The position numbers were made by a program, and so were the translations under genes. From contig CAZZLQ010000005.1 of NCBI GenBank assembly GCA_964655245.1, positions 1 through 57,652 of the forward strand: DNA of 57,652 nt. Direction: 5' to 3'. The first letter of the stretch is position 1. The number at the start of each line of letters is the position of its first letter. Below the pieces are notes generated by a model. That model did not search any database, was not told the origin of the DNA, and saw only the letters and a program-made list of their open reading frames with translations. This stretch comes from an uncultured Bacteriovoracaceae bacterium (lineage in GTDB: Bacteria; Bdellovibrionota; UBA2394). Positions 18,462-57,178 of the stretch are shown here, piece by piece.

Positions 18462-20000
18462 CTAGATATTCCAGTCGATCTCGCGAACGGGAGTAGGCGC
18501 CTCGCTAAGAGCCTTGAGCTCTTTTGTGCGCAGAAACTTGCGCAAAACAGCAATCTCGGAAACATAGGCCTCAAACCATTCCTTGTAGAGGTGAAAGATT
18601 CCCGCATCGCCACTGGTCGTACCCCAGGAGTTCTCCACCCGAAACTTCACCACCCCCTTGCCCTTGGGACGATCATAACCTGAAATCAACATCGCATGCC
18701 CCCCAGACTGAAGGCGTAGGTGCATTGCCATAGGAAGTCTAAGAGCTGAAAACGTCTCTGTTGGGGTCCACCCATAAATCCCTGTGCGATCAAAGATTTT
18801 GGTGTGCATGATGCCGCTCTCGTGATCCACATCTTTATCAACATCTCCGCCAAACCAAACCGGATGGCCTTTGTCCAAAGACTTCACTGTAATCTCCATC
18901 AATCGCTGAATCGAAAGGTTGAGAACACGTCGATTCTTTGCTGGGAAAGCCCGATCACCCACACCAATGGCGGAATCCTTAATCTCGTAAACTTTCCCAA
19001 ATTCAAAGCGAGGATTGTAATCAATCTCGATATAGTCATCGGCTCTAAATCCAACGATCTCCTCGGCAAATGACTGAGGAGTAAAGACTTTGAGCTGGCT
19101 GCTGATTTTGGCCACTTTCCATTTTTTGTCTTCGTCAGGAAGCTTAGCGCCATATCGAAACTCGAATTTTTCTGGAGGCACTCCCAGATACAAAGTCAAA
19201 AGCTTCCAAACCGACGCCATACCTCGGGCCTTAATCTGATAGAGTCGCTTCACTTCGCGCTCAGGAAACTCAGCCTTGAGATCCAGACCTCGCTCCCGAA
19301 AGACTTCATCAAACATTTCCTGAGCAATCCGTCCCAAAAGATTTTGAAGCTCAGGCTCCAGCCACGCCTCGGTATTTTTGGATGCATCTGTTTCTGGCAT
19401 CACAGACTGAGGAACGAGCCCATACTTTTCGATCAAATGCGCAAAGTCCCCGAAGTATCCACCCTCGCCAAGGTGTGTCGGGGAGAGCGCCTCACCATAG
19501 CGAGGAGCCATAAACTCCTTGGAACGAGCCTCAATAATCTTTTCTAAATAGGCATTGGCTTGCTCAAGATAACTAAAGAAGTGGAGGTAAGAACTTGAAA
19601 GCTGAAAGTTCGTCGGCACCAACTGCGAGCCGATGAGCGCTGCTCGAAGCATACTGAGGCCCGCAAAAATCCAACATTTCCCGGAGTCTTCCTGGTTGGT
19701 GATATCTCCACGCCTCACCACAACTGAGTAGTGATCGTTATGGTTTTTCAAAATATCCCCATTCCGAGCCAAAACCGAAAGATCTGTTTGCTGAGCGGCT
19801 TCACGAATCCGGCGCTGAGAGGGCTCGACCTTGGCGGAGGCACGAATCTGCTTCTGAACCCACTGAAAGGCGACAAACTTGAGACGATTTCTACAGGAGT
19901 CTTCCTCGGCGAACAAGGCAGAGGCCATTGTCATACAGACCAAGAAAGGAATCCCAATACCCGACCACCTCATGAAAGCCGAGTTAACGAGATTCCTCAA
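18462..20000 (-). CDS. C1B cysteine peptidase (PepC/bleomycin hydrolase-like) with signal peptide
   Basis: QEDSGKCWIFA catalytic Cys, GHAML, VENSWG; hydrophobic leader ending ALFA; start may be ATG 19973. Confidence 0.85.
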   Translation of the reverse strand: MRNLVNSAFMRWSGIGIPFLVCMTMASALFAEEDSCRNRLKFVAFQWVQKQIRASAKVEPSQRRIREAAQQTDLSVLARNGDILKNHNDHYSVVVRRGDITNQEDSGKCWIFAGLSMLRAALIGSQLVPTNFQLSSSYLHFFSYLEQANAYLEKIIEARSKEFMAPRYGEALSPTHLGEGGYFGDFAHLIEKYGLVPQSVMPETDASKNTEAWLEPELQNLLGRIAQEMFDEVFRERGLDLKAEFPEREVKRLYQIKARGMASVWKLLTLYLGVPPEKFEFRYGAKLPDEDKKWKVAKISSQLKVFTPQSFAEEIVGFRADDYIEIDYNPRFEFGKVYEIKDSAIGVGDRAFPAKNRRVLNLSIQRLMEITVKSLDKGHPVWFGGDVDKDVDHESGIMHTKIFDRTGIYGWTPTETFSALRLPMAMHLRLQSGGHAMLISGYDRPKGKGVVKFRVENSWGTTSGDAGIFHLYKEWFEAYVSEIAVLRKFLRTKELKALSEAPTPVREIDWNI

Positions 20001-20016
20001 AAAATGTTAAGTCTTT

Positions 20017-21189
20017 TCAATCGCTGGACCGAGATCCTTGGGGCCGCCAATACCGCTCCAAACGATCCAGCGAGATACTGAGCGCGGCTCGTTGTTCGGC
20101 GTTGAGGTCGTCTCGCTTGAGGGACTGCTTAAGATCGTTAAAGACCCGTTTTAGGTAGTTTTGAGCACGAATGGGATCATGAGGCATGATCGCTCCTACA
20201 GTCCGAAGGAACGAATCCATATAAAGACGAGTGTACTCAGGCTGTGTACTTAAAAAGCCCAAAAGGTCCAGGGCCCGCTTTCGCTTTTCATCAATCGACC
20301 TTGGCTTTAGATAGTAATCGCCAGATCCCCTCTGATTATGGAGCCCCTCTCCAAGAAGGATTTTGTGTTCCTCCATCCCACGACTCCCCAGCAGTCGAGC
20401 GGCCGCAACGGCGATGGTCTTTTGACGATCCATCTCCTCTGCCAATTCATTGAGACGATTCCAAATCTCAAGGTTCTGAGCGCGATCGACCCGATAAAGA
20501 AGTGAAACCAATGACTTCTCCGCTCGATCTCGATCAATCGGCGAGATGATCAGAAAATCCTTCAGTCGAGAGAGCTGTTTGACATGATACAGGATCTCCT
20601 CTTTGGGCTGTGAAAGATCAATTCTATCCATCACGTCTTCAAGCTGAGGGAGAATATCTGGATGGGAAATCTCATTGGCAGGATAAGAGAGAATCAATGA
20701 ATCGTAGATCAGACCACAAAAAGTCATCGACTGCCTGCTTCCATCAAAGGGACAGAGGTCGAGGGCCTTCCAAAGATCTGATCGAATGGGCTCTCGTAAC
20801 GATTGAGATTCGAGGTAGCCAGATAAAAGTATTTTCTTCAAAGCACGAGCGGCATCCATTTGCGGACCTTCGCGAACAAGTCCTGGCGATTGATGCAGCA
20901 TCGATCCCAACGCCAAGACAAGATGGCGCTGTTGGCCTTCAGAAAAAAGAGCCTCAAACTTACCGAGTGAAAAATCAGTGGCCATGGTTGTGATCCACTC
21001 TGAAACGGCTTTTGGATCTGAATCTGTTATCTTGGACAAGAGTCCTTTGTAGATGGCAGAGGGTTGACTTCCGAGCATTCGGATCTCTCGACTGCAGCGC
21101 TCAATGCCTTGTGGCTCATAGGCCACAACGGGATCGCCAAAACTGGCCCAGAACGACAAAAGAAGTATCAGACAACGAAGCAAGCGCAC
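20017..21189 (-). CDS. Exported helical hypothetical protein
   Basis: SD GGGAG then GTG 21189; signal peptide MRLLRCLILLLSFW..VVA; long ORF. Confidence 0.7.
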   Translation of the reverse strand: MRLLRCLILLLSFWASFGDPVVAYEPQGIERCSREIRMLGSQPSAIYKGLLSKITDSDPKAVSEWITTMATDFSLGKFEALFSEGQQRHLVLALGSMLHQSPGLVREGPQMDAARALKKILLSGYLESQSLREPIRSDLWKALDLCPFDGSRQSMTFCGLIYDSLILSYPANEISHPDILPQLEDVMDRIDLSQPKEEILYHVKQLSRLKDFLIISPIDRDRAEKSLVSLLYRVDRAQNLEIWNRLNELAEEMDRQKTIAVAAARLLGSRGMEEHKILLGEGLHNQRGSGDYYLKPRSIDEKRKRALDLLGFLSTQPEYTRLYMDSFLRTVGAIMPHDPIRAQNYLKRVFNDLKQSLKRDDLNAEQRAALSISLDRLERYWRPQGSRSSD

Positions 21190-21211
21190 ATTTACTCCCA
21201 AGAGGAGGTCT

Positions 21212-21227
21212 CGCAAGAAGCATTCCA
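21212..21227 (-). promoter_or_regulatory. sigma54-type promoter
   Basis: TGGAATGCTTCTTGCG: GG-N10-GC with TTGC at -12. Confidence 0.55.
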
Positions 21228-21249
21228 CGAGAAACAGATGAGATTTTAG

Positions 21250-32353: not shown

Positions 32354-32458
32354 GCAATGCCCCATCGATCGAGTCCCGACTGCCGCACGACTTGGTTTGA
32401 CGGTGAGCCTAAGAACCTGAAAATTCAGTGAATTTAATGGGTGAACAGACTTGGCATT

Positions 32459-32474
32459 TGGCCCCTCATTTGCA
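32459..32474 (+). promoter_or_regulatory. sigma54-type promoter
   Basis: TGGCCCCTCATTTGCA: GG-N10-GC. Confidence 0.6.
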
Positions 32475-32486
32475 CAGATAGGGGTT

Positions 32487-33794
32487 GTGAACCTGAGGTG
32501 TTGGTCATTCGTGCCGTTTTCATTCTTTGCCCTTGTGGCAATAGGCACAGCATGCCCCGAACTTTTGGCTCACGATCCAAGCAGTGATTGTTCGTCCAGA
32601 CTAAAAAAAGTGACCGTGCAATCGAGTTCCCAAGCCATCACAGAGTTTCTCAAGCGAACGGGCATGAAGCCCGCCTTCAATGCTGCAGAAGAAAAGAAAT
32701 TTTTTGCCAAAGCACTTTTGCTCGAAGATCGCATTATCAAAGCGGCCTATCAGCACAAACTTACCGACGTGGAGTTATCGGACAAACGAACAAAAAAAAT
32801 CAGTCAGATCATTCTGCCCCTGCTGAAGCAGATTCCAGCTCTACAAAGCTCTCCCGAAACCCAAGCTCTTGCTGCTGACCTCAAAGAATGGAGCGAGATG
32901 CGAGAGGAACTTATCAAAAGAAATTTAGGCCTACTCGTTGTCGCTGTCCAAAGAATCAAAGATCATTCCCGGTGGGAGCATCAGATCAGCGATCAGCTCG
33001 CTAAACTTAATCAAGCTTTCCAGGGATTTGAACCCAAGTTGAATTTTAAGTTCTCAACCTACGCCATGCGCGCCTTGTTTCAAGGAATTGGAGCAACCAC
33101 AGCAAAAATGCTTTCTCCTCAATTTACCAACTCTCAGTCGCACTTGCTGGCCAAAAGAATCAAGGCTCGAATGGAAGAAAGATTTCGTCAAGACAATGTC
33201 GAGATGTCAGTCGGGGAGATCGCCGAAGAGTTTAAGATTTCGGTTCACCGAGCACGAAGTTTATTGGCGCTTTCGAGCATCCGAGCCATTGAACTGGATG
33301 CCAAGCTGAGTGCGGACTCTGACTTCGACAATGGAGATCTCGTGGCAGCAACTGAGTATCAAAGTCTTAGAAGCTTGGAGAAATCGGAGCAACGCCTTCG
33401 TTTGATAAGGGAGCTTCTTGATAAAATCACCGACCCGACGACCCGAGAGGTCATGACACTGAAAAGTCAAGGTTTGACCCTGCTCGATATTGTCAAAAGG
33501 CTTGATGGCGAAATCCTTAGCAAGCAGGGAGTCAAATTGAGATACGAAGAAGGTGTCCGCGCTCTGAGAGCCATCACTGCGATTGAAGCAGGCAAGGTGT
33601 CCTTGCCGACCTCAAAGCAGATTCTCATCGACTTTTATGGTCTTTATGGCCGACAAAAGCGCGCGCACCATCTCATCGCCGCCGAACAAAACATCAGCAG
33701 GACAGAGGTTCTTTCAATCATTCAGAACCTTACCAAAAACGCCAATGAGGATTGGCTCGATAAAATTCTGGAATCACGACAGTCTCATCGCTGA
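32487..33794 (+). CDS. Divergent sigma70-family factor with N-terminal signal peptide
   Basis: Region 1.2 (EFLKRTGMKPAFNAAEE), 2.1 (REELIKRNLGLL), 2.3 (FEPKLNFKFSTYA), 3 (EIAEEFKIS..ELDA), region 4-like HTH; hydrophobic leader ending ELLA; start 32487 or 32511. Confidence 0.75.
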   Translation: MNLRCWSFVPFSFFALVAIGTACPELLAHDPSSDCSSRLKKVTVQSSSQAITEFLKRTGMKPAFNAAEEKKFFAKALLLEDRIIKAAYQHKLTDVELSDKRTKKISQIILPLLKQIPALQSSPETQALAADLKEWSEMREELIKRNLGLLVVAVQRIKDHSRWEHQISDQLAKLNQAFQGFEPKLNFKFSTYAMRALFQGIGATTAKMLSPQFTNSQSHLLAKRIKARMEERFRQDNVEMSVGEIAEEFKISVHRARSLLALSSIRAIELDAKLSADSDFDNGDLVAATEYQSLRSLEKSEQRLRLIRELLDKITDPTTREVMTLKSQGLTLLDIVKRLDGEILSKQGVKLRYEEGVRALRAITAIEAGKVSLPTSKQILIDFYGLYGRQKRAHHLIAAEQNISRTEVLSIIQNLTKNANEDWLDKILESRQSHR

Positions 33795-33803: not shown

Positions 33804-34835
33804 TTAGAACGGATCGACCACCAACCACTGGTTCTGGCCTGGATCAAAAACGACTCGAGCAATATTGGGATCAAGAGCAACGGGTCCCGCCTCAAAGAAC
33901 ATAAGGTAGGGAGTTCGAAGTTTCTGCATGAGAGAATTATAAAAACGGGCATGCTGAAAACTAAAGGCTTCCAAGATCTGGAGCGGCAGGATTTCTCGGT
34001 CGACCAAGTCTTGGATATCCTCAATCGACAAGCCCGCATGAAAAGAGAGGACTATTCGTTGTGAGGGCTCATCGACCATTAAAATTTTTGAACTCATCGC
34101 ATTCTGAGAGGAAAGAAACTCAAAAGTCTTTCTTTGTCGTTCAAAGACAGAGGTATCTCCCAAGATCTGTTTGACTAAGAAGAGCTCCTGATCCTTGCGA
34201 GTCAAATGAATCTTGGACAGCTCCCGCTCCTCCAAGAGACGTATAAACTCGTACTTTTGCTGATTGATCTCGGCGAACTCCGAATTCAAGAGCACTTTTG
34301 TTTTGGACTGAATAACGGACGGAAGAATCTCAACGAGTCTAGGCAACAAGCGTTTAAAGACGCGATCCTGTTCTTTCACGAATTTATTGAACAAGGATCT
34401 GAGCTGACGATGATCTCGAATCCATGGAGCCTCTTTTCCGCGGCCCTGCCGGCGAACCCACATCTCAAACAACTCAGCAATCTGGAAATCGTGATTTCGA
34501 AACGAACTCCCCACCTCAAGGCCATGCTCTGGACGAACAAGCTGCGGCAGAACCTGAGCGAGATGCTTGGGCGTCAGGGGCTGATCAGATGATTGAGTGA
34601 GTGAGGTCAAAAGTTTTGAGCAAAACGGATTTGGGCCCAAAACTTCCCCATGAAAATCGGTAGCTGACAGCAATGCGGACAAAATCCAGATCAACGCAGG
34701 ACTCCCTTGAAGCCCTCTGTTAACCCGAGGTTTTGACCAAAGGCAAGCCCCCCCCGGGGCTAGTTCCGGCATCCGAAGGTTGAGGTAAGGCGCTAAATTG
34801 TTTAGGCTTTTCGAATGGGTCGACAATGGCTTCAC
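33804..34835 (-). CDS. Exported hypothetical protein, possible atypical protein-kinase-like fold
   Basis: Hydrophobic leader LIWILSALLSA; C-terminal half resembles Bud32/RIO-type kinases (FLVKQ, ILMVDEPSQRIVLSFHAG, LDPN, LVVDP); true start is probably well downstream of 34835. Confidence 0.5.
   Translation of the reverse strand: MKPLSTHSKSLNNLAPYLNLRMPELAPGGACLWSKPRVNRGLQGSPALIWILSALLSATDFHGEVLGPNPFCSKLLTSLTQSSDQPLTPKHLAQVLPQLVRPEHGLEVGSSFRNHDFQIAELFEMWVRRQGRGKEAPWIRDHRQLRSLFNKFVKEQDRVFKRLLPRLVEILPSVIQSKTKVLLNSEFAEINQQKYEFIRLLEERELSKIHLTRKDQELFLVKQILGDTSVFERQRKTFEFLSSQNAMSSKILMVDEPSQRIVLSFHAGLSIEDIQDLVDREILPLQILEAFSFQHARFYNSLMQKLRTPYLMFFEAGPVALDPNIARVVFDPGQNQWLVVDPF
34780..34808 (+). promoter_or_regulatory. 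sigma70-type promoter of a probably leaderless yebC mRNA
   Basis: TTGAGG-17nt-TAGGCT-6nt-ATG. Confidence 0.55.
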
Positions 34836-37126: not shown

Positions 37127-37140
37127 CTTTGAACACTCGT

Positions 37141-37866
37141 ATGGTGCGTATGTTTGCTGGATCATTCATTTTCCTGTTGGCCATCTCTCACGCCAGTTTT
37201 GCTGACGGCTGCAAGCGAGCAGTTGCTAAAGCGACTTCCTTCAAGCGCTCGCCCGAATCCATTCAATTCTGGAAAGCGATTGGAGAAAAACCTCCAGCGA
37301 CCTTTGATGAGTTGTCTGCCAAGCATCATCCTCAGTTTATCAACGGACTGCCCAGCTATGAGTCTCGGCCGGACGATATGGGATTTACGGATTGGGCCTT
37401 TGCGTTTGCGCGAGCTCACCCTCTCGATTCCAAACTCATCAATGCCGCTCGCTGGTTAGGCCAGGAAACCAAGAAAGAATTCCAGGATCTGATGCGGCGG
37501 ATTGAGTTATCTCAAGGTCAGGGAATCGAAGCGAATGGAATGGAGCTCGCGATGAGATCTCAATACTACTCTGAAATGCGCCAGGCACTTGCCGGCGAAA
37601 TCATGCCGTTTCCTGAGCAGGGGGAGGATGGACTTGAGGCATTTTTCAAACGAAAAAACGGCGGAACTTTCGTCGATCTGTATGAAGCTCACACAAGACT
37701 CTATCAGCATGAGACAGAACTCATGAAGCTCAAGGCTTCATTGCCGGAAAACTTCTCTGATATTTCTCGTCTTGAGCACGCCATTTCATTTTACAAAATT
37801 ATTATTGAAAGGATTCCGGACCATGCCAAAGCGCGGTTGAAGAAGGCGGCTCTCAATGCAAACTAA
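37141..37866 (+). CDS. Exported hypothetical protein (paralog A)
   Basis: Signal peptide ending ASFA; clear similarity to the next ORF. Confidence 0.75.
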   Translation: MVRMFAGSFIFLLAISHASFADGCKRAVAKATSFKRSPESIQFWKAIGEKPPATFDELSAKHHPQFINGLPSYESRPDDMGFTDWAFAFARAHPLDSKLINAARWLGQETKKEFQDLMRRIELSQGQGIEANGMELAMRSQYYSEMRQALAGEIMPFPEQGEDGLEAFFKRKNGGTFVDLYEAHTRLYQHETELMKLKASLPENFSDISRLEHAISFYKIIIERIPDHAKARLKKAALNAN

Positions 37867-38647
37867 CTTGAGACATCGACTCCAGATTTGCTTCCGGTTC
37901 AGCCTGGCGATTACTTTGGCACTTCCTCTATCGTCCAAGATTTTTGCTCACGACTGCCAGTGGCTTCTGACTCGAATCTCTCAGACCCATCAACCCAAGA
38001 TCGTCGAGAGATCCGACATTTCTTTGAAATTTTGGAGATCATCCACCAAGGTGAATCCTGAAACCTTTGATCAGTGGGCATCTCGATCTAAGCCTGAATA
38101 TATCAATGGACTGCCGACCTTCGAATCCAGACCGGATGCTCAGGGCTTCACAAACTGGGTGATCGCCTTTGGACGAGCGCATCGACTAAACTCAAAACTC
38201 ATCGCAGAAACTGAACGCCAACAGGCTCAAAGCTCGTGGGATTTTAAAAAGGCGTTTGAGGAGTTCAAGAAAAACCCCTCAGATGAAGTCGAAAATCATT
38301 TAGCCCTGCTCGCTTCCAAGGCTCAATACTACCGTGAAATGCAGCAGGCTCTGTCAGGCGATTTCTTTCCTTATCCTGAGCAGGGCCGAGAAGCTCTTAA
38401 TCGATTTCTTGATGAACGTTCAGGCGATCTCAAAATGGACCTCGAGGAAGCGCACATACGGCTCTGGCAAGCAGAGTCTCGGCTGACGGAGGAGATGTAT
38501 CAAAGAGAGTCGAGCCTTGTGGAAACACTGCCGCTTCTTCGAGAGATCAATTTTTACAAAGATGCCATCTCGGAGATCTCAGCGCGAATCAGTTCCCAAC
38601 AAACAAGTGAGACGTCGAGATCAATGTCCCGCAGCCGCTTGCCTTAG
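37856..38647 (+). CDS. Exported hypothetical protein (paralog B)
   Basis: Signal peptide ending KIFA; shares INGLP..ESRPD..GFT.W and QYY.EM.QAL.G...P.PEQG with paralog A. Confidence 0.75.
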   Translation: MQTNLRHRLQICFRFSLAITLALPLSSKIFAHDCQWLLTRISQTHQPKIVERSDISLKFWRSSTKVNPETFDQWASRSKPEYINGLPTFESRPDAQGFTNWVIAFGRAHRLNSKLIAETERQQAQSSWDFKKAFEEFKKNPSDEVENHLALLASKAQYYREMQQALSGDFFPYPEQGREALNRFLDERSGDLKMDLEEAHIRLWQAESRLTEEMYQRESSLVETLPLLREINFYKDAISEISARISSQQTSETSRSMSRSRLP

Positions 38648-41600
38648 GAAATCAGCGCACTTCCACCGCTTAGAAATGATCTGAGGATTCTTACTGCTTT
38701 GGATCATTTCGAGCATTTCCTCTTTTTTCTGAGGCTCTTGCTTTTGAAGCTTCTCAAAATCCTCTCTCGAAAGATGACCATCAATCAGCAGTCGAATCGC
38801 CGTCATCCTCACAAGTGCCCAGCGCGCTCTCAAGATTCTTTCGGCTTCAACCTTGCCCGCTTCCACGAGAGAGGCGATTTCTCTCTGAACGGGCTCGCTT
38901 GTGGCAATCACAACACCATCTTTGACCGGAAACTTGAGAGCCTCATCCGAAAGACCCCATGTCGTCACTGCTTCCTCTGCAAGACGTCGCGCCTGTTTTA
39001 GGTCTGATGACCAACCCGAATCTTTGCTAAAGCCTGCGAGCTGTTGCGCCATGTTTCCCGCCAAAATCCCGGCGATACGAGCCACAACCGCCTCTCGGCT
39101 GTAATAGTAGACGGGGTCATCGCTTTCATATCGAACATATCCACCATAGCCTCCTTCACCACGAATCGTGATGAAGCCAACCACGGCACCCGTAAGCTCT
39201 GGCTGATTAGCAACGGCATGTCCCGCTTCATGATAGGCAACAATCAAACTGTCATTGAGATCCGCCAATCGCTTGGGCTTTGCTTCACGAGTAATGTCCA
39301 TCGAGTAGTCTTGAACTTTTCGTTTGGGAATCTTCACATGTAATCTGAGAACCACCTCACGAGGGGTCAGATCCTTCGATGTTCTTCGAATCCGCCCGGA
39401 AAAGTTATCTTCAACATCAAGAGTCAATGTCGCTCGCTGAAAGTTCTCACGATCCATTGCATGTTCAATCAAGGCCTGGCCAACGAGATCCACCACGGCG
39501 TTTTCGGCGACCTCGCGAAGACTTCGTCCCCCTCGCGCATGCGAGAAGAAAGACTCCGTAAGACGTTCATAAAATCCATCCGCAACTTTGATGTTGTCAA
39601 ACTCATAAGCAGCCTTCAGCTGACCTAAGACTCGCTCAACTTCCTTCTTGGCCACTTGAATCTGCTCCGAATGAATCAAAGGCTTCATAAGCGCGATATT
39701 ATTTCCGATTCGACCGAGAAGAGGCTCGGGCCATCCGCTGTGTCTGAGAAGATCTTGTAGATAATCCCGACGATTCATTCGCTTCCACTCTGACAATCGC
39801 AGATCATCATTGGGAAGATTTTCAAACAACTCCTGCCCCTCATTAGAAGTCATCAAAATAAAATGTTTTCGAAGATCGTATTTATTCCCTAGGGGGCTCG
39901 TCCAAGTGCCCTCCTCAAACATGTCATAAAGACGTTTCAAAAGTTCTGAGCGGGGGGTAGCCATTGAGGGATGTCGAGGGTCCGCACCCATATTGCCAAT
40001 CTCATCTAAGATAATGACCATTCCTTCAGGAAAATCATGAAGCGCCTTTTCAAATGGAGACATGGTTTCTGAGCCTACAATGCCTCGAGGTGAGCCAAAA
40101 ATATTTGACCAATCATGTTCTGTCTTCACTTGTCCCAAACCAAACTGTCGCATTCTTTGGGAGGTTCCGTACAAGACTTGCGCCAAAGCGCGCCCCAGCT
40201 CCGTTTTGCCAATTCCCGTGGAGCCGAGAAGAAGCGCGTGAGCTGGCACAACGAGTTTGGAATTGAGGGCACGGGTTCTGACTGCTCGACTCACCACTTT
40301 GATGGCCTCAGCCTGCCCAAACACTGACTTTCCAAGCTCTTCCTCAAGACCTTGAAGCCTCGAAATAGATTGGGGATCCTGAAGGGGATTGATCTCCGTC
40401 AAACGAATCAGCAAATGATCGACAATTGTCACCTTCTGATTGGTCTTATTCGCCAGCAGAATGGACGCTTCGCCCTTCTCGCTTCGATGATCCCAAGTGG
40501 CCATCATCTCGTGATTTTCGGCTGGGCTTAACTGCAAAACGGCCTCCTGATGAAGCCTGTTGAACAAATCCATCGTCTGCTGCAAGAGGCTTCGAACGCC
40601 CTCCTCAGGCACATAATAGGTTCGAACAATCTCTTCGATAGTGGGCTCATCAATAGTGAGAGAATAGAAATACTGCTTCTTAATCTGCTGCGAGATCGAT
40701 TGGGCCAACCCTCGAACAATCGCGACGGCCCCTTCGAATGAAGGGGGAACAACCGCCACAGCACGATCAATCCGCTGAAGCTCAGCAGCCCCCCAAACCT
40801 GGGAGGTGTCATAGAGATTTTTTGATGAAGGCTTCAAAAACAAATCGCGAACTCGCTTGTCCGTAAATGTAGCAAGCCGTCGCATCAATTCATCGCGCTT
40901 AAGTGCTGTGCCCTGACCCACAGGATAGATTTCATCCGCACCGCGATTGGAGGTAAACACCACCAGGGATCGGCCAAGATAGTATGTTTGCCCATCTCCA
41001 CCTTGAAGCTTTCCGGTATCCAGCATCTCCATCAGAATCTTGATGAGATCCGGATGAGCTTTTTCGATCTCGTTGATCAAAATCACATTTCGGCCTTTGC
41101 CTCGGCCGCGCAAGAATTCAGGCAAGATACCCTGAGGGGAGTCAGCGTTGTATCGAGCCGTCCCAATCAAGGAATCAAAAACACCATTTCGATACTTTGT
41201 CGCATCAATCTCTAGGAATCGTTCGGGATCTCGAAGGACATGCTGAGCAAAAGCTTGCCCTGAAAACGTCTTTCCCGCTCCGGTTGGACCCACCGCCAAG
41301 AGCGATCGATGCTTCTTGTGTCCAACGCCCAAATTCACTTCACGCCACAGATCGATCATCGCTGAAACAAGCTGGGGCTGATCCACAACGACTTCGAGAA
41401 GCTTCTGACGACCTTCCTCATTGGCCTGAACAAAAGCTGTCGGATTTTGAGGACCGACGCCGTACATAGTCCAAGCAGCCTTATCAATATCCTCAGGCTT
41501 AACTTCCGTTTTTTTGGCTCGAGTCAAATCGGTTTTAATCTGCTCAAGGAGGCGAACACTGCGCGCAGGCTCATGAGATCCCGGATCCAAATCCGAGGAG

Positions 41601-42934
41601 ACGCTGATCACGCGATTGAGCATGGACTCGTCGAGCTTGTATCCAAACTTAAGATCAATCCACGAATGCAGCTTTCGCAACAGTTCTTCATCACGAGGCT
41701 CCTCAATTCGAATCTCCGCAAATCTCCTCCGAAGAGCGGGGTCGGAACCAAAAGCTCGTTGGTATTCCTCGGGAGTGTCCGTCGCAACAATCATGAGATC
41801 GCCTGCTGCAATATGCTTCTTCAGCATTTGCATCAAATCCACGCTACTATTGGAATGAGTTCCAAGGCCCTTCAGGCTATGAAACTCATCAAAAACGAGA
41901 ACAAGGGGAATCGATCGTGAAGCCTGAATCAGCGCATTCACACGCTTGTCAATTTCGCCCACCAGTCCCGCGCCCTGTTCGAGAGCTTCGCGAGGGACCT
42001 GCATCACTTCCCAAGTCTCAGGAAGTTTGTCGATTAATCCCTCGATGATCGTTGTCTTCCCGGTGCCACTCTGTCCGAGCAAAACAACCGACTTGGACTC
42101 CTTGCGTTTCAAAGCCTCGACGATTCGCTGAATGACTTCCTTATCTTTGTCAGTGGGAGGAAGCATATTCTTTCGATCAAAGCCATCTCGCAAATCTGGC
42201 AAGAGATCCTGCAAAAAGGCGAGGGCGTCGATCCGTGATCCTGAAGTCGTCAGCACCGCCTTTGCCGCTTTAGGCTCAAAGGTAGCCTCGAGTTCCAACC
42301 GCAGCAAATCAAGGTCTCGGCCGCCCGGAACATAAAGCATCATATGGCTCATATCCAAAACGACCTCATTCATCTGTTCGTCCTTGAATGGGACTGAGGC
42401 CACTTTGATCAGCATTTGAGACGAGGCTTCATAAAAGTAGGTTCCGAGCATATTGGGAGAAATCACACTCAGCAGAAAAAGCTGATTTCCCGTGTCTTCC
42501 AAGTGGCGAACTCGAAGTGCCTCGACCTCTGTAGGAAAAAGCGGATGGCGCAGGAGCGTTCCCCGACTCGAGATGAGTAAAGCTTCATTTTTGTCAGTGA
42601 TCGCATAGGTATAAGAGTTTGAACGATGATGAATCGGTTCAACGATTCCACGAATGAGACCTCTTTGATGCCCATTGACCCCAATGCGCTTGATCGGTCC
42701 CGTGTAGAGCACCTCCGAAGAGTTGGAAAGGGGAGAGCCCACGATGATTTGCACATCCTGACTCTGCGGAACCTGAATGAATCGAACGGCCACCTGGGAA
42801 TCCGCAAAAACAAAGGATCCCAACAGCTTTTGAGGGCTACCCCCCGGAGCATCGGAGTAGTCCGCATTGGCCTGAACGGCAAAGGAAAACAAAATTGAAA
42901 CCCACAAAAATCCCCGAACAATCAATAACTTCAC
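38621..42934 (-). CDS. Signal peptide + three ClpA/B-type AAA+ modules + FtsH-type (M41) peptidase domain
   Basis: Walker A GQSGTGKT, GPTGAGKT, GSTGIGKT; VFDEFH, DPALRRRF, INEIEKAHP, VFGQAEAI, ILMTSN; AYHEAGHA, SSDLKQA; leader ending ANA. Confidence 0.85.
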   Translation of the reverse strand: MKLLIVRGFLWVSILFSFAVQANADYSDAPGGSPQKLLGSFVFADSQVAVRFIQVPQSQDVQIIVGSPLSNSSEVLYTGPIKRIGVNGHQRGLIRGIVEPIHHRSNSYTYAITDKNEALLISSRGTLLRHPLFPTEVEALRVRHLEDTGNQLFLLSVISPNMLGTYFYEASSQMLIKVASVPFKDEQMNEVVLDMSHMMLYVPGGRDLDLLRLELEATFEPKAAKAVLTTSGSRIDALAFLQDLLPDLRDGFDRKNMLPPTDKDKEVIQRIVEALKRKESKSVVLLGQSGTGKTTIIEGLIDKLPETWEVMQVPREALEQGAGLVGEIDKRVNALIQASRSIPLVLVFDEFHSLKGLGTHSNSSVDLMQMLKKHIAAGDLMIVATDTPEEYQRAFGSDPALRRRFAEIRIEEPRDEELLRKLHSWIDLKFGYKLDESMLNRVISVSSDLDPGSHEPARSVRLLEQIKTDLTRAKKTEVKPEDIDKAAWTMYGVGPQNPTAFVQANEEGRQKLLEVVVDQPQLVSAMIDLWREVNLGVGHKKHRSLLAVGPTGAGKTFSGQAFAQHVLRDPERFLEIDATKYRNGVFDSLIGTARYNADSPQGILPEFLRGRGKGRNVILINEIEKAHPDLIKILMEMLDTGKLQGGDGQTYYLGRSLVVFTSNRGADEIYPVGQGTALKRDELMRRLATFTDKRVRDLFLKPSSKNLYDTSQVWGAAELQRIDRAVAVVPPSFEGAVAIVRGLAQSISQQIKKQYFYSLTIDEPTIEEIVRTYYVPEEGVRSLLQQTMDLFNRLHQEAVLQLSPAENHEMMATWDHRSEKGEASILLANKTNQKVTIVDHLLIRLTEINPLQDPQSISRLQGLEEELGKSVFGQAEAIKVVSRAVRTRALNSKLVVPAHALLLGSTGIGKTELGRALAQVLYGTSQRMRQFGLGQVKTEHDWSNIFGSPRGIVGSETMSPFEKALHDFPEGMVIILDEIGNMGADPRHPSMATPRSELLKRLYDMFEEGTWTSPLGNKYDLRKHFILMTSNEGQELFENLPNDDLRLSEWKRMNRRDYLQDLLRHSGWPEPLLGRIGNNIALMKPLIHSEQIQVAKKEVERVLGQLKAAYEFDNIKVADGFYERLTESFFSHARGGRSLREVAENAVVDLVGQALIEHAMDRENFQRATLTLDVEDNFSGRIRRTSKDLTPREVVLRLHVKIPKRKVQDYSMDITREAKPKRLADLNDSLIVAYHEAGHAVANQPELTGAVVGFITIRGEGGYGGYVRYESDDPVYYYSREAVVARIAGILAGNMAQQLAGFSKDSGWSSDLKQARRLAEEAVTTWGLSDEALKFPVKDGVVIATSEPVQREIASLVEAGKVEAERILRARWALVRMTAIRLLIDGHLSREDFEKLQKQEPQKKEEMLEMIQSSKNPQIISKRWKCADFLRQAAAGH

Positions 42935-43144: not shown

Positions 43145-43168
43145 CTTTGCAGTGAGGAGGTGGCTTTG

Positions 43169-45093: not shown

Positions 45094-45263
45094 GTATCAA
45101 TTATAGCCGACCTTAGGGGGATTGTGCAAAACCTAAACCTGAGTATCTCCAGGTGCAGATTTCGCTTCAAAGTCGACGACAAGTCTTTTAGCTTCATGGA
45201 AGCTCGCGGGGAAGACCTGCTTCGATGGAGTCGAAGCACGAGCGATTGGAGATTGAGACAAAA

Positions 45264-46739: not shown

Positions 46740-46757
46740 GGATCAAGGGGAGTATTC

Positions 46758-49245: not shown

Positions 49246-49253
49246 AGGGAAAT

Positions 49254-49886
49254 ATGAAAGCAAAAGTCAAAGTTCTTGATCATCCACTGCTCAGACACAA
49301 ACTGGGGTATCTCAGAGACAAAACCACAGCGTCGGGAGAATTCCGAGAAATCACCAAGGAAATCAGCAGAATCTTGGCATACGAAGTCATGCGCGATTGG
49401 AAGGATATGAAAAGAGTGAGCGTTGAAACGCCGATCTCCCCAACCAAAGTGGAACGCATTGATCATCCGCCGGTGGTCGTTTCGGTGATGCGTGCGGGCA
49501 ATGGAATGCTCGATGCGATCTTGTCCATGATCCCTTTTGCGTCGGCAGGATTCATCGGCATTTATCGAGACAAGTTTATTCACAATACGGTGGAATACTA
49601 CTTCAAGATGCCTGCGGACATTAAGGGACGGATGGCCTTGCTCTGCGATCCACTCGTCTCAACGGCCGACACCATGATCGCAGCTATTGATCGCCTCAAG
49701 AGCTATGAGGTCAAAGAAATCAAGATCCTCACGATTTTGGTGAGCAAAACAGCGCTTGAGCGGCTCAATCATTTTCATCCTGATGTCGAGATTTATACTC
49801 TCGAGGTCGAGTCCGAAATCAACGAGCTGGGCTATCTGGTCCCAGGCTTAGGAGATGCGGGTGACCGACTCTACCAGACACGATAG
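49254..49886 (+). CDS. upp: Uracil phosphoribosyltransferase
   Basis: DHPLL, MRAGNGM, DPLVST PRPP loop, YLVPGLGDAGDR. Confidence 0.93.
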   Translation: MKAKVKVLDHPLLRHKLGYLRDKTTASGEFREITKEISRILAYEVMRDWKDMKRVSVETPISPTKVERIDHPPVVVSVMRAGNGMLDAILSMIPFASAGFIGIYRDKFIHNTVEYYFKMPADIKGRMALLCDPLVSTADTMIAAIDRLKSYEVKEIKILTILVSKTALERLNHFHPDVEIYTLEVESEINELGYLVPGLGDAGDRLYQTR

Positions 49887-50505
49887 AGGCCAAACGCATC
49901 CTTATGTGATTGGAGTTGCAGGCGGTAGTGGATCCGGAAAGACGTATTTCTCAACGGCGTTGCGACGGCTCATTGGTGACGACAAATGCTCAGTGATCCT
50001 TCAGGACAATTTCTATTTTGATCAATCGCAGCAGTTTGATTTTGACGGCGGCTCTGTCAACTTTGACCATCCAAGCAGTATTGATTTCAAGATGCTGGCT
50101 GAGTGCTTGGTCTCTTTGAAGAGTGGGGCAGCCACTCAGATTCCAATTTATGATTTCATCACCCACACAAGATCCTCAAGCCATATCCTGGTGGAGCCTC
50201 GGCCTGTGATCATTGTGGATGGAATTCTGATCTTGCACGATGAGCATGTTCGCTCCCAACTTCATTACGCTATTTTTTTTGATACGCCGGAAGAGCTTCG
50301 ATACGCCCGAAGACTCAATCGGGATGTGAACGAACGAGGTCGAACTCAAGAAGGCGTCAGAGCTCAGTTTCAAAAGCAGGTTAAGCCCATGCACGATATG
50401 TTCGTTGAACCGTCAAAGCTCTTCGCAGATGTTGTGATGACGGAAAACGACTCTTTTGATGCGTTTCTCCAGGGCTTTTCCCATCAGCTCAAAACAATAC
50501 TCTGA
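49855..50505 (+). CDS. udk: Uridine kinase
   Basis: IGVAGGSGSGKT, NFDHP, PIYDF..HTR, RRLNRDVNERGR, VKPMH..FVEPSK; start uncertain. Confidence 0.92.
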   Translation: MRVTDSTRHDRGQTHPYVIGVAGGSGSGKTYFSTALRRLIGDDKCSVILQDNFYFDQSQQFDFDGGSVNFDHPSSIDFKMLAECLVSLKSGAATQIPIYDFITHTRSSSHILVEPRPVIIVDGILILHDEHVRSQLHYAIFFDTPEELRYARRLNRDVNERGRTQEGVRAQFQKQVKPMHDMFVEPSKLFADVVMTENDSFDAFLQGFSHQLKTIL

Positions 50506-50507
50506 GT

Positions 50508-52040
50508 TTACTTGAGTTCCGGATTAAGAGGCGTCACGGGCTTTGTGCTTTCGGGAAGCTTTACTGGCCCCACCACTTCACCTTCTTTGTACCGACGAGA
50601 AATCTCTCTAAACCCATCTTCATTATACTCACGAACTTCAAATCGAGACCGAGCACCCGTCAAAATCGGGCGACCGAGGGGATCTACACCAAACAAGAGA
50701 GCATTGTAGATTTCAACGATTCGCTGAGCTGCGGCCGCTCGACCCTTTTCGATCGGTCGATCGGGTAGAGGCTCAAATGAATCGCGAGCGCCTTTGATGT
50801 ATTCCATGGCAATACGAATATTGAAGTCCGAATCTTTCAGCTGAAAATACGCATAAAAATTCTGATCGAATTGCTCCTGCGTAAAAGCCGTATCAGCAAT
50901 CTGCAGCTTCAGATCCATCAGAAAATCTTTATGATCCAACCAATGCAGTTGCTCATCGGGAAGAGTGAACTCCTGGTACTGACGAGTGGTCCATTCGGCC
51001 GTATCATTCCAGCCAGTCTTGATTTGAGTTCCAACAGCTACAAACAAGGTTAGCGTAGCACCAATCCCCATCACCTTCACGACCGGCTTCTTGAGCCAGT
51101 CGAGTTTTGAAACCACAAACTCAAATGATCGCGAGGCACCTGACTGAAATCGCTTCAAACCACCATGCACTTGTTTCAGCGCGCTCTCCATCATTCGGGA
51201 AACAAACTGAGTTGCCCATGGCTCAGGCTGCATTCGAGAATTGAAGATGACTTTTGCAATGCTCTCGACACGTGAGCGAACCACTCGTCGCTGTTGTGTT
51301 TCGTCGGAACTCTCTACGCTCGGGTATCGCTGATCATACGCCGAAAGAATGGCTTCAACCGACTGAAGGTCCTTCACTTCTTTGCCAATGGCTTTCTCCA
51401 GGTAGAGTTGAAACTTCCAGAACAACAGGGCCTGATTAATCTGTAAATCCACTTCGAGTTCGTCTTTTACAAATCGAAGATCACTTTCTTCGAGCGACAC
51501 TCGCTCTTTTAGCTCCTTCTTATCCTGAGGCTCGAAGTGTCCCATCCAATCATCGATTGAGATCGATCGATCATTAAATGAGACCGAAGGAGGCATATCG
51601 GAAATCGATGTTGGATAAACAAGATCAGGCTTTGCCAGCGCCGCTTTGAGGATGCGAATACGACCGTCAAGATTCACTTTCGCTTCCTGAAACTTGGCAT
51701 TCTCGCGCACGAATCGATGGGAGTCTTTGATCCAGTTTTGCACCGCTGTATCTGCGTCGGAAAAAGCCATCCCACGCACGTTCTGGTATCGCGAGGCTTC
51801 CAAAATGACACGAGTGACGTATCGAAGGTCGACTTCATTGAGCATCTTCCACGAGGCCTTAACTCCCATCTTGGCAATCGCTCCTCGACATCGAAGATGA
51901 GAAGGCAGATTCTCGTTTTTGTTCAACAGTTGAACCAAGGATTGAGTCGGAACGGGCTTCGGATCTTGAGCTGGAAAAGCATTGAATGAAACTAAACTCG
52001 ACACCAAGAACAGGCCCACAATTCGTGCAAATGAACTCAT
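50508..52040 (-). CDS. Exported hypothetical protein with internal hydrophobic helix
   Basis: Signal peptide MSSFARIVGLFLVSSLVSFNAFPA; coiled-coil-like body; VMGIGATLTLFVAVG segment. Confidence 0.7.
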   Translation of the reverse strand: MSSFARIVGLFLVSSLVSFNAFPAQDPKPVPTQSLVQLLNKNENLPSHLRCRGAIAKMGVKASWKMLNEVDLRYVTRVILEASRYQNVRGMAFSDADTAVQNWIKDSHRFVRENAKFQEAKVNLDGRIRILKAALAKPDLVYPTSISDMPPSVSFNDRSISIDDWMGHFEPQDKKELKERVSLEESDLRFVKDELEVDLQINQALLFWKFQLYLEKAIGKEVKDLQSVEAILSAYDQRYPSVESSDETQQRRVVRSRVESIAKVIFNSRMQPEPWATQFVSRMMESALKQVHGGLKRFQSGASRSFEFVVSKLDWLKKPVVKVMGIGATLTLFVAVGTQIKTGWNDTAEWTTRQYQEFTLPDEQLHWLDHKDFLMDLKLQIADTAFTQEQFDQNFYAYFQLKDSDFNIRIAMEYIKGARDSFEPLPDRPIEKGRAAAAQRIVEIYNALLFGVDPLGRPILTGARSRFEVREYNEDGFREISRRYKEGEVVGPVKLPESTKPVTPLNPELK

Positions 52041-54970: not shown

Positions 54971-55306
54971 GTGCAAAAGCTTCACCATTTCATTTTCAGT
55001 CTAAAGATTTTCAGCGTCAGCCTTGTGGTAGCCGGCAGCCTTCAGGCGAGTCCGATCAGCTCAAAAACACCGCGTTCCAACTCATCTCAGGAACTTGATT
55101 CCAGCACCAGTCGCTTCGCCCTCAGCCAAACGGAGGAACGCAGATCGTTTTGCTCCTCGCTCTTTCACCAGGCCTACGATTCATGCTGTAAGTCAGAGTC
55201 CGGCTGCAACGAAACTCAACAAGAGCGGCACTGCAACGGCGAAGCCAACACCATTCACGAAAGTTGCCTTTCTGCCTCACAGAGGACGACGAACAGCTTT
55301 TATTGA
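54971..55306 (+). CDS. Small exported six-cysteine protein
   Basis: SD GGAGG before GTG 54971; signal ending SLQA; six Cys in the C-terminal half. Confidence 0.6.
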   Translation: MQKLHHFIFSLKIFSVSLVVAGSLQASPISSKTPRSNSSQELDSSTSRFALSQTEERRSFCSSLFHQAYDSCCKSESGCNETQQERHCNGEANTIHESCLSASQRTTNSFY

Positions 55307-55397
55307 CTCATGTGGACAACGAGCTCTTTTTCGGGGTTTTGAATCCCCAGCGGGGGGGCATTGAAGCCATCTAAACCCCCTAAAAGCCATTCACCAG

Positions 55398-55413
55398 TGG
55401 CATATTCTTTGCT
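55398..55413 (+). promoter_or_regulatory. sigma54-type promoter
   Basis: TGGCATATTCTTTGCT: GG-N10-GC. Confidence 0.65.
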
Positions 55414-55465
55414 CCATTAAATCCGACTCTTGCACAAGCTCTGAAATCAGGGGAGAAATGGCGCT

Positions 55466-57178
55466 GTGATTAGGATTGGATTTTTCATTTTTTGCTCAGC
55501 AGTTTTAAGCCCCTTACTCCTTGCCGACGGCAAGAGCCAATCAAAGCCGCCCGCGGAATGGTTTTTTGAACCGCGAGAGGCCCATGAAGACAGCTCTGAC
55601 TTTCAAGCGCGCCGCGCACGACAAGCCTCTCAAGAGAGCGTTCTGATTCTCAATGAGCGAGCAAACATCTTCACTGCGGAATCGGAAAGTGGAAGTGGAT
55701 CAGGAATCATCCTTCAGGTTACAGCAGAGCATATTCTGATTCTCACCAATGAACATGTTGTTCGAAGAGGTGCGCATGAATCTCAAGTCATCAAAGTGGC
55801 CTTCACCAATCCCGATGGCAGTGACGAGTGGACGTTTGCTACCGCTGTGAAGACAAGCATGCAGCGAGACGTCGCCGTCATGATTGTTCCTCGATCTTCG
55901 ATCAAAACAGCTCAACCTCAGGAGGCGAAGATCCCTGTCTCTCCCGAGCACCTTCAGTATTTGCTTCAACGAGGACGCAACAACTTTGCTTTTGGAAATC
56001 CCCTTGGTGGCAGAAATGTTTTCACAAAGGGAGTTCTCTCGGGGCTTCCCACAACGGCCATGGACGATGAGATCATGATCCAAACGGACGCGCCTATTAA
56101 TCCAGGAAACTCTGGCGGACCTCTCTATGACATTGCCACAGGTTCTGTTATCGGAATGAATACCGACAAAGTGGCGAGTGCCTACGTCGATTCCGTCGGA
56201 CGTGCAATCCCCATCACGACGGCATTGCAAGAAGCTCAGCGTCTCTTGGATGGTCGTCACGATCAAGGCCAGGGATACATTCCAGGCCGGACAGAGCGAA
56301 TCCCCATCTCCCTTCTTCAAAAGGAAGGAACCTGGCCGATCGTTGAGAAGAACTATCCGGATCTCTTGGCAGCTCAGCAGAAGTTTAAGCAAGCTTCGCA
56401 GGGTCTTCAGATTCTCACGGACATTCATCCTGATTCGGGCCTCCAAGTGGGAGATGTCATCATCAAAGCCAATCAATCTTATGTGGGATCTGATGAGAGA
56501 GAATTGATCCGACGCATTCGTTCGACTGCCAACCAACAGGTTCAGTTTGAAGTCTTAAGAGGGGATCAGATTGTTAAGATTAATGTTCATGTCCAGGATA
56601 TGCTTCAATCTTTGCGAGCGAGAGAAACCAACTTCGCAGCCGTTGGCGGCCTGATTTTGCAGATGCCTCTGCTCAATGAAGATGGTGACTATCTTCGGGG
56701 AGAAAAGGGAGTTCTTGTGACTGAGATTGTTCCTGGCTCTCCAGGCTCTAAACTCATGGAACAGGGTGAACTCGCCAGGTTCTCTCTTATTTATAAGGCG
56801 CAAGTCGGAACCAAGACGTTTGCTATTGAAAGCCTCGAGGATGTCCACCAACTGGCCGACCATCTCAAGGCCTCAGATCATAAGCTCGTTCGACTCTATG
56901 TGAAGAACCCTATCCGCCTTTTCCAACCCGACCAACTCAAACTCAAAACTCTCCTCGACACCAACGGGCTACCCGTTCTGAATTCCAAGCCTGAGTTCGT
57001 CTTACTGGAATCGCCGGAAGTGATCACCTCTCGTAACGGCGAGATGAATGAACTCAGAGAAGAGCTCAATCGAAGTCTTTTGTCAGGAACAGTTTACAAT
57101 TTCACGGATGCCGCTCGATCTGCATCTGACCGTTGTGCTCAAAGGCTCAAAGATTTAAAGTCTTCGAATGAGACTTAA
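55466..57178 (+). CDS. HtrA/DegP-like trypsin serine protease with PDZ-like domains
   Basis: GSGII, LTNEHVV, DVAV, IQTDAPINPGNSGGP, GLQVGDVII, GVLVTEIVPGSP; signal peptide. Confidence 0.9.
   Translation: MIRIGFFIFCSAVLSPLLLADGKSQSKPPAEWFFEPREAHEDSSDFQARRARQASQESVLILNERANIFTAESESGSGSGIILQVTAEHILILTNEHVVRRGAHESQVIKVAFTNPDGSDEWTFATAVKTSMQRDVAVMIVPRSSIKTAQPQEAKIPVSPEHLQYLLQRGRNNFAFGNPLGGRNVFTKGVLSGLPTTAMDDEIMIQTDAPINPGNSGGPLYDIATGSVIGMNTDKVASAYVDSVGRAIPITTALQEAQRLLDGRHDQGQGYIPGRTERIPISLLQKEGTWPIVEKNYPDLLAAQQKFKQASQGLQILTDIHPDSGLQVGDVIIKANQSYVGSDERELIRRIRSTANQQVQFEVLRGDQIVKINVHVQDMLQSLRARETNFAAVGGLILQMPLLNEDGDYLRGEKGVLVTEIVPGSPGSKLMEQGELARFSLIYKAQVGTKTFAIESLEDVHQLADHLKASDHKLVRLYVKNPIRLFQPDQLKLKTLLDTNGLPVLNSKPEFVLLESPEVITSRNGEMNELREELNRSLLSGTVYNFTDAARSASDRCAQRLKDLKSSNET

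Follow-up and report, generated by a model that had tools for sequence, protein, structure and literature searches.

The window, by which we mean the whole 57,652-nucleotide stretch analysed here, is contig C5 of the genome of an uncultured Bacteriovoracaceae bacterium (G000; 2.17 Mb in 100 contigs, 96% complete). It encodes nine predicted exported proteins that share, near one end of the mature chain, a lone cysteine opening a short helical motif, hereafter the tag. Nine motifs had been quoted in a first-pass annotation of this DNA, and translation of the open reading frames (ORFs) found each of them at its place. The nine genes are listed below with strand, length of the product in amino acids (aa), position of the tag-coding segment and residue number of the tag cysteine.

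18462..20000, minus strand: PepC-like aminopeptidase, 512 aa, with a signal peptide (SP) and an N-terminal tag, CRNRLKFV, 19872-19895, Cys36
20017..21228, minus strand: exported protein of no known family, 403 aa, N-terminal tag CSREIRML, 21073-21096, Cys45
32451..33794, plus strand: sigma-70-like exported protein, 447 aa, N-terminal tag CSSRLKKV, 32589-32612, Cys47
33804..34835, minus strand: ORF of 343 aa with SP, N-terminal tag CSKLLTSL, 34599-34622, Cys72
37129..37866, plus strand: exported protein of a genus-restricted family, 245 aa, N-terminal tag CKRAVAKA, 37210-37233, Cys28
37856..38647, plus strand: paralogue of the preceding protein, 263 aa, N-terminal tag CQWLLTRI, 37955-37978, Cys34
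38621..42934, minus strand: AAA+/M41 exported protein, 1437 aa, C-terminal tag CADFLRQA, 38636-38659, Cys1426
50508..52040, minus strand: exported protein of no known family, 510 aa, single Cys51 in CRGAIAKM, 51867-51890
55466..57178, plus strand: HtrA-like serine protease with PDZ domain, 570 aa, C-terminal tag CAQRLKDL, 57134-57157, Cys557

Three of these proteins could be assigned to families with confidence. The PepC-like call is solid (Peptidase_C1_2, E 3.9e-77, Pfam), the AAA+/M41 protein combines three AAA+ modules with an M41 protease domain (AAA_2, AAA and Peptidase_M41, together with ClpB, ClpV and FtsH models), and the HtrA-like protein matches Trypsin_2, PDZ and Do-family models in Pfam and NCBIfam, the latter scanned with eight tagged window proteins at E<=0.01. 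Neither Pfam nor NCBIfam returned a match for the proteins encoded at 20017, 33804 and 50508. For 33804, whose true start is probably Met22, an Atlas search gave leads below 0.9 only (0.89), and its earlier description as kinase-like is at best tentative. The sigma-like label survived in part: the 32451 product has weak but coherent similarity to RpoD and RpoS in NCBIfam, with hits far below the cut-offs (best E 1.7e-11, 44 bits), and no match in the Pfam scan. The nine proteins had been called unrelated, which holds for most of them; those encoded at 37129 and 37856 are paralogues (34% identity), which leaves eight families. The family of 37129 numbers four members in a search of 5.8 billion proteins, all four of which carry the tag, its cysteine lying two residues after an FA[DH] site.

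In seven of the nine proteins the tag cysteine is the only cysteine outside the signal-peptide region, as had been noted, and the 1437-aa AAA+/M41 chain contains no cysteine besides Cys1426. PepC has one further cysteine (Cys109) and the 20017 protein two (residues 159 and 171). In the 50508 protein the cysteine lies about 27 aa past the predicted cleavage site.

Lone terminal cysteines across the genome

Genes of G000 were called with our own crude codon-bias ORF picker using longest-ORF starts, which yielded 1913 proteins in a first set and 1802 in a second. Signal peptides were assigned by our own hydrophobicity and charge heuristic, not SignalP: somewhere in the first 45 residues there must be a 9-residue window that is free of charges and has a mean Kyte-Doolittle hydropathy of >=2.3, the n-region must be basic, and no transmembrane-like stretch may follow later. 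A loose regular expression (regex) for the motif matched 247 of 3905 mid-protein cysteines (6.3%) as against 101 of 910 at residues 20-59 (11%). Among the 335 SP-like soluble proteins, 85 have exactly one cysteine beyond the hydrophobic h-region; in 57 of these 85 it lies within 25 aa of the end of the h-region, where a uniform distribution would place 8.4. Ordinary lipoboxes make up about 26 of the 57, and about 31 fit the tag pattern. Among the rest of the 85, 12 proteins carry their cysteine in the final 28 aa, and the pattern fits 7-9 of these 12. The 251 single-cysteine proteins that lack a signal peptide showed no terminal enrichment (14 in the last 25 aa, against 28 expected).

For the second gene set we defined an N-terminal tag as a cysteine no more than 35 aa from the signal peptide within C-x3-[LIMVF]-x2-[LIVMAF], and a C-terminal tag as a motif cysteine in the last 30 aa. 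The single-cysteine SP proteins then divide into 23 with a lipobox, 29 with an N-terminal tag, 7 with another N-terminal cysteine, 8 with a C-terminal tag, 4 with another C-terminal cysteine, and 2 and 11 with a mid-protein cysteine inside and outside the motif, respectively. One non-tag C-terminal cysteine is accounted for by a 166-aa exported protein encoded at C13:7289-7789 on the minus strand of G000, with orthologues in G003 and G005, whose end (...LMAKCASKYEPGG) is presumably that of a CcmE haem chaperone of the CxxxY variant. In a shuffle control on 61 non-lipobox single-cysteine SP-like proteins, 28 N-terminal and 8 C-terminal tags were observed, whereas 2000 shuffles of the mature parts averaged 0.87 and 0.58 and reached at most 5 and 4. 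The terminal enrichment of lone cysteines that the first-pass annotation had anticipated is thus present above the shuffled background, given heuristic signal-peptide calls.

A position-specific scoring matrix (PSSM; positions +1 to +9, threshold >5 bits) gave a similar picture within SP-like proteins, recovering 29 of 134 post-SP, 3 of 98 C-terminal and 1 of 538 mid-protein cysteines. Among proteins rejected by the signal-peptide rule it recovered 28 of 4990 cysteines, about 9 of which were judged by eye to belong to missed SP proteins, the 33804 product having the top score of those missed. This matrix was seeded by the regex and trained on N-terminal sites, which makes its N-terminal hit rates partly circular, and we rely on the shuffle and positional controls. 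Two other approaches were discarded: unconstrained mixture expectation-maximization over all cysteine windows drifted to CxxC and Fe-S motifs, and a matrix seeded from seven sites was overfitted. We estimate that G000 encodes 45-60 tagged proteins, mostly unrelated to one another. Close homologues, where named by their sources, come from Bdellovibrionota, Bacteriovoracaceae or Deltaproteobacteria metagenome-assembled genomes.

Anatomy, portability and conservation of the tag

The tag consists of about ten residues, S-x-[PRDE]-C-[RS]-[KQ]-x-[LI]-[KR]-x-[LVI]-[SGT], in which the lone cysteine opens a short basic amphipathic helix. Upstream, the PSSM favours serine at -3 (0.43), E, K, S, G or D at -2, and P (0.22), R, D, E or H at -1. 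Downstream, the consensus runs R/S, K/Q, R/L/A, L/I (1.8 bits), K/R, any residue, L/V/I and then S/G/T, and the hydrophobic residues 0, +4 and +7 fall on one face of the helix. The helical hydrophobic moment averages 1.32 in tags and 0.84 in mid-protein cysteine windows, a difference that is partly by construction, and the net charge +0.75 and -0.31, respectively. By a rough estimate of cleavage sites, the cysteine of N-terminal tags occupies mature position 2-45 (median 11); in C-terminal tags of G000 it lies 10-28 residues from the end. The order, cysteine and then helix, is identical at both termini. In AlphaFold2 models of two families the tag is predicted as a short, low-confidence helix on a flexible linker: in an SP-bearing PhoH/PIN protein, residues 25-35 form a helix around Cys28 (pLDDT ~55) between signal peptide and PIN domain, and in a model of the M41 domain a C-terminal helix, residues 245-257, surrounds Cys249 (pLDDT 55-60) after a domain modelled at >90.

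The tag behaves as a portable module that can sit at either terminus, as the first-pass annotation had held. All-against-all BLAST of 67 regex-tagged proteins found only 5 related pairs, and the two members of one homologous pair differ in the end that bears the tag (N-terminal in C14_6644, C-terminal in C1_83326). A paralogue of the window's HtrA-like protease, C30_23787 (27% identity), likewise has a C-terminal lone-cysteine tag, CAEDLRQL. Tag-coding DNA segments gave no blastn-short matches to each other, and a DNA cassette or repeat as the origin of the motif was rejected. The tag cysteines are encoded by 41 TGC and 26 TGT codons, compared with 3045 and 2890 genome-wide.

Conservation extends well beyond close relatives in several families. 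Among SP-bearing PhoH/PIN orthologues (536-575 aa, 40-92% identity), all ten have one post-SP cysteine in a short leader ahead of the PIN domain, and a hydrophobic residue follows it at +4 (at +3/+4 in two proteins); the signal peptide is clear in nine, and the N-terminus of P0010 is less clear and perhaps truncated. No such leader is present in the five canonical cytoplasmic homologues inspected (440-473 aa), whose cysteines, 0-4 in number, are scattered. For the C-terminal region of the AAA+/M41 protein, 23 of 23 database homologues (33-95% identity) have a cysteine 6-32 residues from the end; most of them contain 1-2 cysteines in >1200 aa, and the column of the C-terminal cysteine is nearly invariant (alignment A2). 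At 23 AAA+/M41 loci in genomes from six further families of the phylum, a cysteine lies no more than 25 residues from the stop codon in 21; of the other two, one ran off its locus and one is a weak 716-aa match with neither HExxH nor cysteine. Every locus with HExxH (19/19) has the C-terminal cysteine. The PepC tag is kept in the same-genus orthologue of G001 and in a 31%-identical orthologue from another genus (G012, GACEETVRAL), and the 20017 orthologue in G001 retains ERCSREIRGL. Orthologues that keep the signal peptide and lose the cysteine, the observation named in the first-pass annotation as contrary to its view, were not encountered in the PhoH/PIN (10/10) or AAA+/M41 (23/23) sets, nor for PepC at 31% identity. 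Judged from these alignments, retention of the tag in diverged orthologues is evidence of selection.

Cargo, gene order and possible functions

A Pfam scan of 49 tagged proteins (E<=0.01) found matches in 16, and in 11 of these the match exceeds the curated cut-off. The latter comprise PepC, the protein with three AAA+ modules and M41, two Trypsin_2/PDZ proteases, a PIN plus PhoH protein, an M20 peptidase, an alpha/beta hydrolase, a small methyltransferase domain, Glucosamine_iso plus PIG-L, a BamB-like propeller and an Rce1-like CPBP protease. Below the cut-off are an acyltransferase, SelO, a transglutaminase core, a second sigma-70 region 2 and DUF1554. Several of the domain families represented among the carriers need ATP, S-adenosylmethionine (SAM), RNA or RNA polymerase, which suggests that their site of action would be the cytoplasm of another cell. 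Cargo of cytoplasmic type, to which the first-pass annotation had drawn attention, is borne out in Pfam by the ATP- or SAM-dependent domains of AAA+/M41, PIN-PhoH and the methyltransferase. As cargo, the exported AAA+/M41 and sigma-70-like proteins are striking in themselves, and export of the latter would be remarkable should a structure bear out the sigma-like assignment. Beside the window protein at 32451-33794 (plus strand), a second weak sigma-70-like SP protein is encoded at C16:14421-15878 of G000.

Tagged genes also tend to be neighbours. Among 52 high-confidence genes we counted 11 adjacent tagged pairs, including the 20017 gene and the PepC gene it adjoins in the same orientation, when 1.4 (all genes) or 2.0 (SP genes) were expected, and none of 5000 permutations reached 11. 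Two of the 11 pairs are paralogous, and in several an N-tagged gene comes first and a C-tagged one second, their frames overlapping or 4 bp apart. Upstream regions gave no sign of a shared promoter: in a comparison of 6-mers between 40 tagged-gene and 821 other regions, the best of ~2500 had p=7e-4 and none survived correction.

Among genes that might serve such proteins, G000 encodes a DSBA-domain ORF of 384 aa with 12 cysteines, by eye a VKOR-DsbA fusion, and a second DsbA-like protein; DsbB was not found in this genome. The DSBA-domain ORF with its 12 cysteines leads us to regard the periplasm as oxidising. It is part of a run at C30:16813-25475 that reads type II secretion system (T2SS)-type ATPase and secretin, DSBA-domain ORF, 148-aa ORF and C-tagged HtrA paralogue. 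In all there are four secretin and eight T2SSE-family matches, and CsgG (PF03783) was not found in this 96% complete genome. Five matches to CPBP (Rce1-like) proteases were obtained; one of these proteases, C15_14680, carries a tag, and its gene follows that of a C-tagged SelO-like protein at a distance of 27 bp. Two LGT matches are present, one of them following an LspA-like gene by eye. A second LGT paralogue as a tag-specific transferase was rejected on account of its phylum-wide occurrence.

To our knowledge, how Bdellovibrionota move Sec-exported hydrolases and regulators from the periplasm into prey is an open question. We propose that the tag serves as a recognition peptide and that its thiol would make a reversible covalent bond, likeliest a mixed or intermolecular disulfide in the oxidising periplasm, with a carrier, a secretion component or a co-encoded neighbour. 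Such a bond might hold enzymes of cytoplasmic type (AAA+/M41, PIN-PhoH, PepC, M20, methyltransferase and sigma-like proteins) or route them to another cell, where reduction would release the cargo; the rest of the chain would be kept cysteine-poor so that the single thiol escapes scrambling. Our probability for this reading, in which prey-directed enzymes are held or routed, is about 0.4. It is favoured because selection appears to act on exactly one cysteine in long chains that are otherwise cysteine-free, and because a fixed orientation at both termini fits binding plus bond formation better than a cleavage signal. A further reason is chemical. A cysteine that begins a helix and has basic neighbours is, by established chemistry, expected to be a reactive thiolate, and the tag cysteine would be one. 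The functional sorting role put forward in the first-pass annotation, and the putative export of tagged cargo out of the cell or into prey, are plausible on the sequence evidence.

A bolder version of the same idea may also be considered, in which the tag is a thiol-coded, end-agnostic address. Its cysteine would form a disulfide to a predator carrier or translocon, perhaps linked to T2SS or pilus-type machinery, which would take cytoplasm-type enzymes into the prey cytoplasm for release by reduction. The AAA+/M41 unfoldase-protease and the PIN-PhoH RNase-ATPase would be delivered in this way, and sigma-70-like proteins could retarget prey RNA polymerase. We regard this fuller scheme as unlikely and offer it as speculation. 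A short, recognisable and conserved tag would let the prey-directed secretome of uncultured relatives be listed from sequence, would offer a handle (Cys-to-Ser changes, tag swaps) for finding the machinery, and might serve the engineering of predator-delivered proteins. Whatever the function of the tag, several dozen exported proteins that each retain a single reactive cysteine at a flexible end make an unusual redox design for a periplasm with a DsbA-type oxidase.

Several observations weigh against the recognition-peptide proposal. Its appeal to cytoplasm-type cargo rests on a minority of carriers, since 33 of the 49 scanned have no Pfam match, and some of those that do match are ordinary periplasmic types (the HtrA-like proteins and the BamB-like propeller). 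The BamB-like carrier is itself genus-restricted (2 of 31 genomes) and permits no inference on a swap from lipobox to tag in a universal lipoprotein. Our searches identified no partner, carrier or dedicated machinery, and the adjacency of tagged genes could simply reflect effector islands. At least two LGT matches occur in most of 31 related genomes, tag-poor ones included, and do not track tag density. The cysteine exclusivity emphasised in the first-pass annotation stands for seven of the nine window proteins and is modest in the looser regex set, where 54% of 67 tagged and 37% of 189 untagged SP proteins have no other cysteine (p=0.02). The signal-peptide calls are heuristic. Furthermore, the tag is dense only here: the strict count is 37 of 1802 proteins in G000 (9 and 5 in two 400-kb subsamples), two tags in 280 kb of G005, of the same family, and none in 400 kb each of G003 (same family), G022, G125, G171 and G057, and PSSM-based counts in the relatives agree. 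Dense use of the tag is restricted to this genus, and the tagged AAA+/M41 and PhoH/PIN families are much older than the expansion of the tag.

The adjacent pairs are also what one would expect if the tag were an oligomer staple, with tag helices pairing within homo-oligomers or between operon partners and disulfides stabilising extracytoplasmic enzymes without any sorting. The AAA+/M41, HtrA, PepC, PhoH and M20 families, from which many carriers come, oligomerise; a lone exposed cysteine in a DsbA-containing periplasm would end by default in a disulfide with another thiol; hydrophobic residues at i, i+4 and i+7 share a helix face; and the surplus of pairs includes several that combine an N-terminal with a C-terminal tag. 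A helix of about two turns that ends in S, G or T is short for a coiled coil, however, the tag sequences reveal no complementary charge pattern between paired tags, the disulfides would not survive reducing conditions in the target compartment, and the export of nucleotide-dependent enzymes of cytoplasmic type would be left unexplained. We give the staple a small chance of being the answer, though a larger one than any other rival. Lipidation, by which the cysteine would be S-acylated or otherwise lipidated by the producer or in the target cell and the enzyme pinned to a membrane, as at either end of S-acylated eukaryotic proteins, is rather improbable. The basic amphipathic context at either terminus resembles S-acylation contexts, a few AAA+/M41 orthologues end in the loosely CaaX-like C-x-x-L-L, C-A-S-L-L-Q or C-K-S-L-F-M, and one of the five CPBP proteases is tagged beside a C-tagged SelO-like gene. 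Against this, residues -3 to -1 (S; variable; P, R, D or E) form no lipobox although canonical ones coexist, the C-terminal tag cysteines of G000 are 10-28 aa from the end and not 4, the second LGT paralogue is phylum-wide and unrelated to tag density, and sigma-like cargo points to bacterial targets, where S-acylation is not known; we know of no bacterial periplasmic S-acyltransferase for such motifs.

The HExxH metalloproteases among the carriers (AAA+/M41 and, read from the sequence, C9_14405 with HEAGH and C31_8889 with HETQH), the other hydrolases and the adjoining partner genes of unknown function bring to mind a latency switch, in which the cysteine helix would fold onto its own enzyme, or bind a co-encoded inhibitor, and keep hydrolases inactive in the periplasm of the producer until reduction, as in the cysteine switch of metalloprotease propeptides. 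We consider this very improbable, as the motif is also found on non-hydrolases (sigma-like, methyltransferase, propeller) and AlphaFold2 models it at low confidence, not confidently docked. Finally, a low-information motif picked by eye could be a product of chance or annotation: the regex alone matches 6-8% of all cysteines, and signal-peptide and gene calls are heuristic. The shuffle control, the positional controls and conservation down to 31-40% identity contradict this explanation and leave it hardly credible.

Other genes of the window are recorded here for completeness. Between the clusters of tagged genes, 35597-37033 (plus strand) encodes a RoxA-like cytochrome c (PF21419, E 6.6e-14) with two CxxCH motifs. 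The segment 24344-29978 (minus strand) encodes proteins of 943 and 578 aa with prepilin-type N-termini by eye, the larger very cysteine-rich; neither has a Pfam or NCBIfam match. Contig C3 of G000 encodes three proteins of a size similar to the larger (C3_30174, C3_34667 and C3_39440; 923-972 aa, 30-32 cysteines), and giant minor pilins or adhesins are one possible identity. At 45225-50505 (plus strand) a run of five genes includes GTP_CH_N/GTP cyclohydrolase II and DUF1688 matches, with, by eye, a 504-aa aldehyde dehydrogenase-like protein first and uracil phosphoribosyltransferase-like and uridine kinase-like proteins as the last two, a set that we take to resemble the URC uracil-catabolism genes known from yeasts.

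Comparison with known systems

We rate the motif as a real terminal tag on exported proteins, one that has apparently gone undescribed so far. Our literature search, covering titles and abstracts, found no description of such a tag, and a term search of the article text of PMC12622784 gave no occurrence of 'cysteine'.

One familiar arrangement is the lipobox of lipoproteins. There, too, many exported proteins without common ancestry have an invariant cysteine, the chemically modified residue, immediately behind their N-terminal Sec signal. The tag differs in having no [LVI][ASTVI][GAS]C and a polar or charged residue at -1, in placing its cysteine 1-45 residues past an AxA-type site (a rough estimate), in its conserved positions downstream of the cysteine (+4, +7) and in occurring near C-termini too. 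Neither the PSSM at -3 to -1 nor the position of the cysteine describes a lipobox, and proper ones (23) coexist in the same single-cysteine SP set of G000. Lgt and LspA are present in G000, but LGT pairs are widespread and thus uninformative on the tag.

MYXO-CTERM-type signals offer a second parallel. As described by Haft, such tripartite C-terminal signals consist of a cysteine motif, a transmembrane helix and an arginine-rich cluster. They share with the tag a short terminal homology region with an invariant cysteine, found on unrelated SP proteins in tens per genome; they are strictly C-terminal, whereas most copies of the tag are N-terminal. CPBP proteases are encoded in G000. C-terminal tags end 10-28 aa past the cysteine in charged or amphipathic sequence with no hydrophobic or transmembrane stretch, and this architecture rules out a MYXO-CTERM-type signal. 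None of the NCBIfam sorting-domain models was matched by the eight tagged window proteins, which hit catalytic-domain families only. For contrast, the window does encode a MYXO-CTERM-like tail: a 271-aa protein at 43160-43975 (plus strand), which combines a haem motif (CSGCH) with a match to choice-of-anchor V (NCBIfam E 8.3e-9, below cut-off), ends by eye in GGCG, a hydrophobic stretch and basic residues.

CaaX and S-acylation motifs, known from eukaryotic proteins and from bacterial effectors that are lipidated in host cells, resemble the tag in presenting a cysteine beside basic or amphipathic sequence near either end of diverse cargo. The tag cysteine is never at -4, being 10-28 residues from the end in G000 and 5-25 in AAA+/M41 orthologues, and by this position it is no CaaX box; tag carriers moreover have Sec signals, and the sigma-like cargo suggests bacterial targets. 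In manner of working, the tag might be likened to the C-terminal domain of type IX secretion system (T9SS) substrates and the N-terminal 22 residues of curli CsgA, second-step secretion tags on Sec-exported proteins, which also combine a cleaved Sec signal with a terminal element for a later step. Unlike the tag, these are fixed to one terminus, longer or, in the case of the T9SS domain, folded, and lack an essential cysteine.

AB toxins, whose enzymatic chain is held to the delivery chain by a single interchain disulfide until reduction in the cytosol of the target breaks it, follow the logic that we propose for the tag. This likeness is again one of working only: the handle here would be a generic peptide on dozens of cargoes, and no B component was identified in our analysis. 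If the thiol-coded delivery considered above were true, it would amount to a modular, many-cargo AB-toxin logic, which could be categorically new. Among known systems, the tag belongs with the short terminal sorting or attachment signals that are built on an invariant cysteine.

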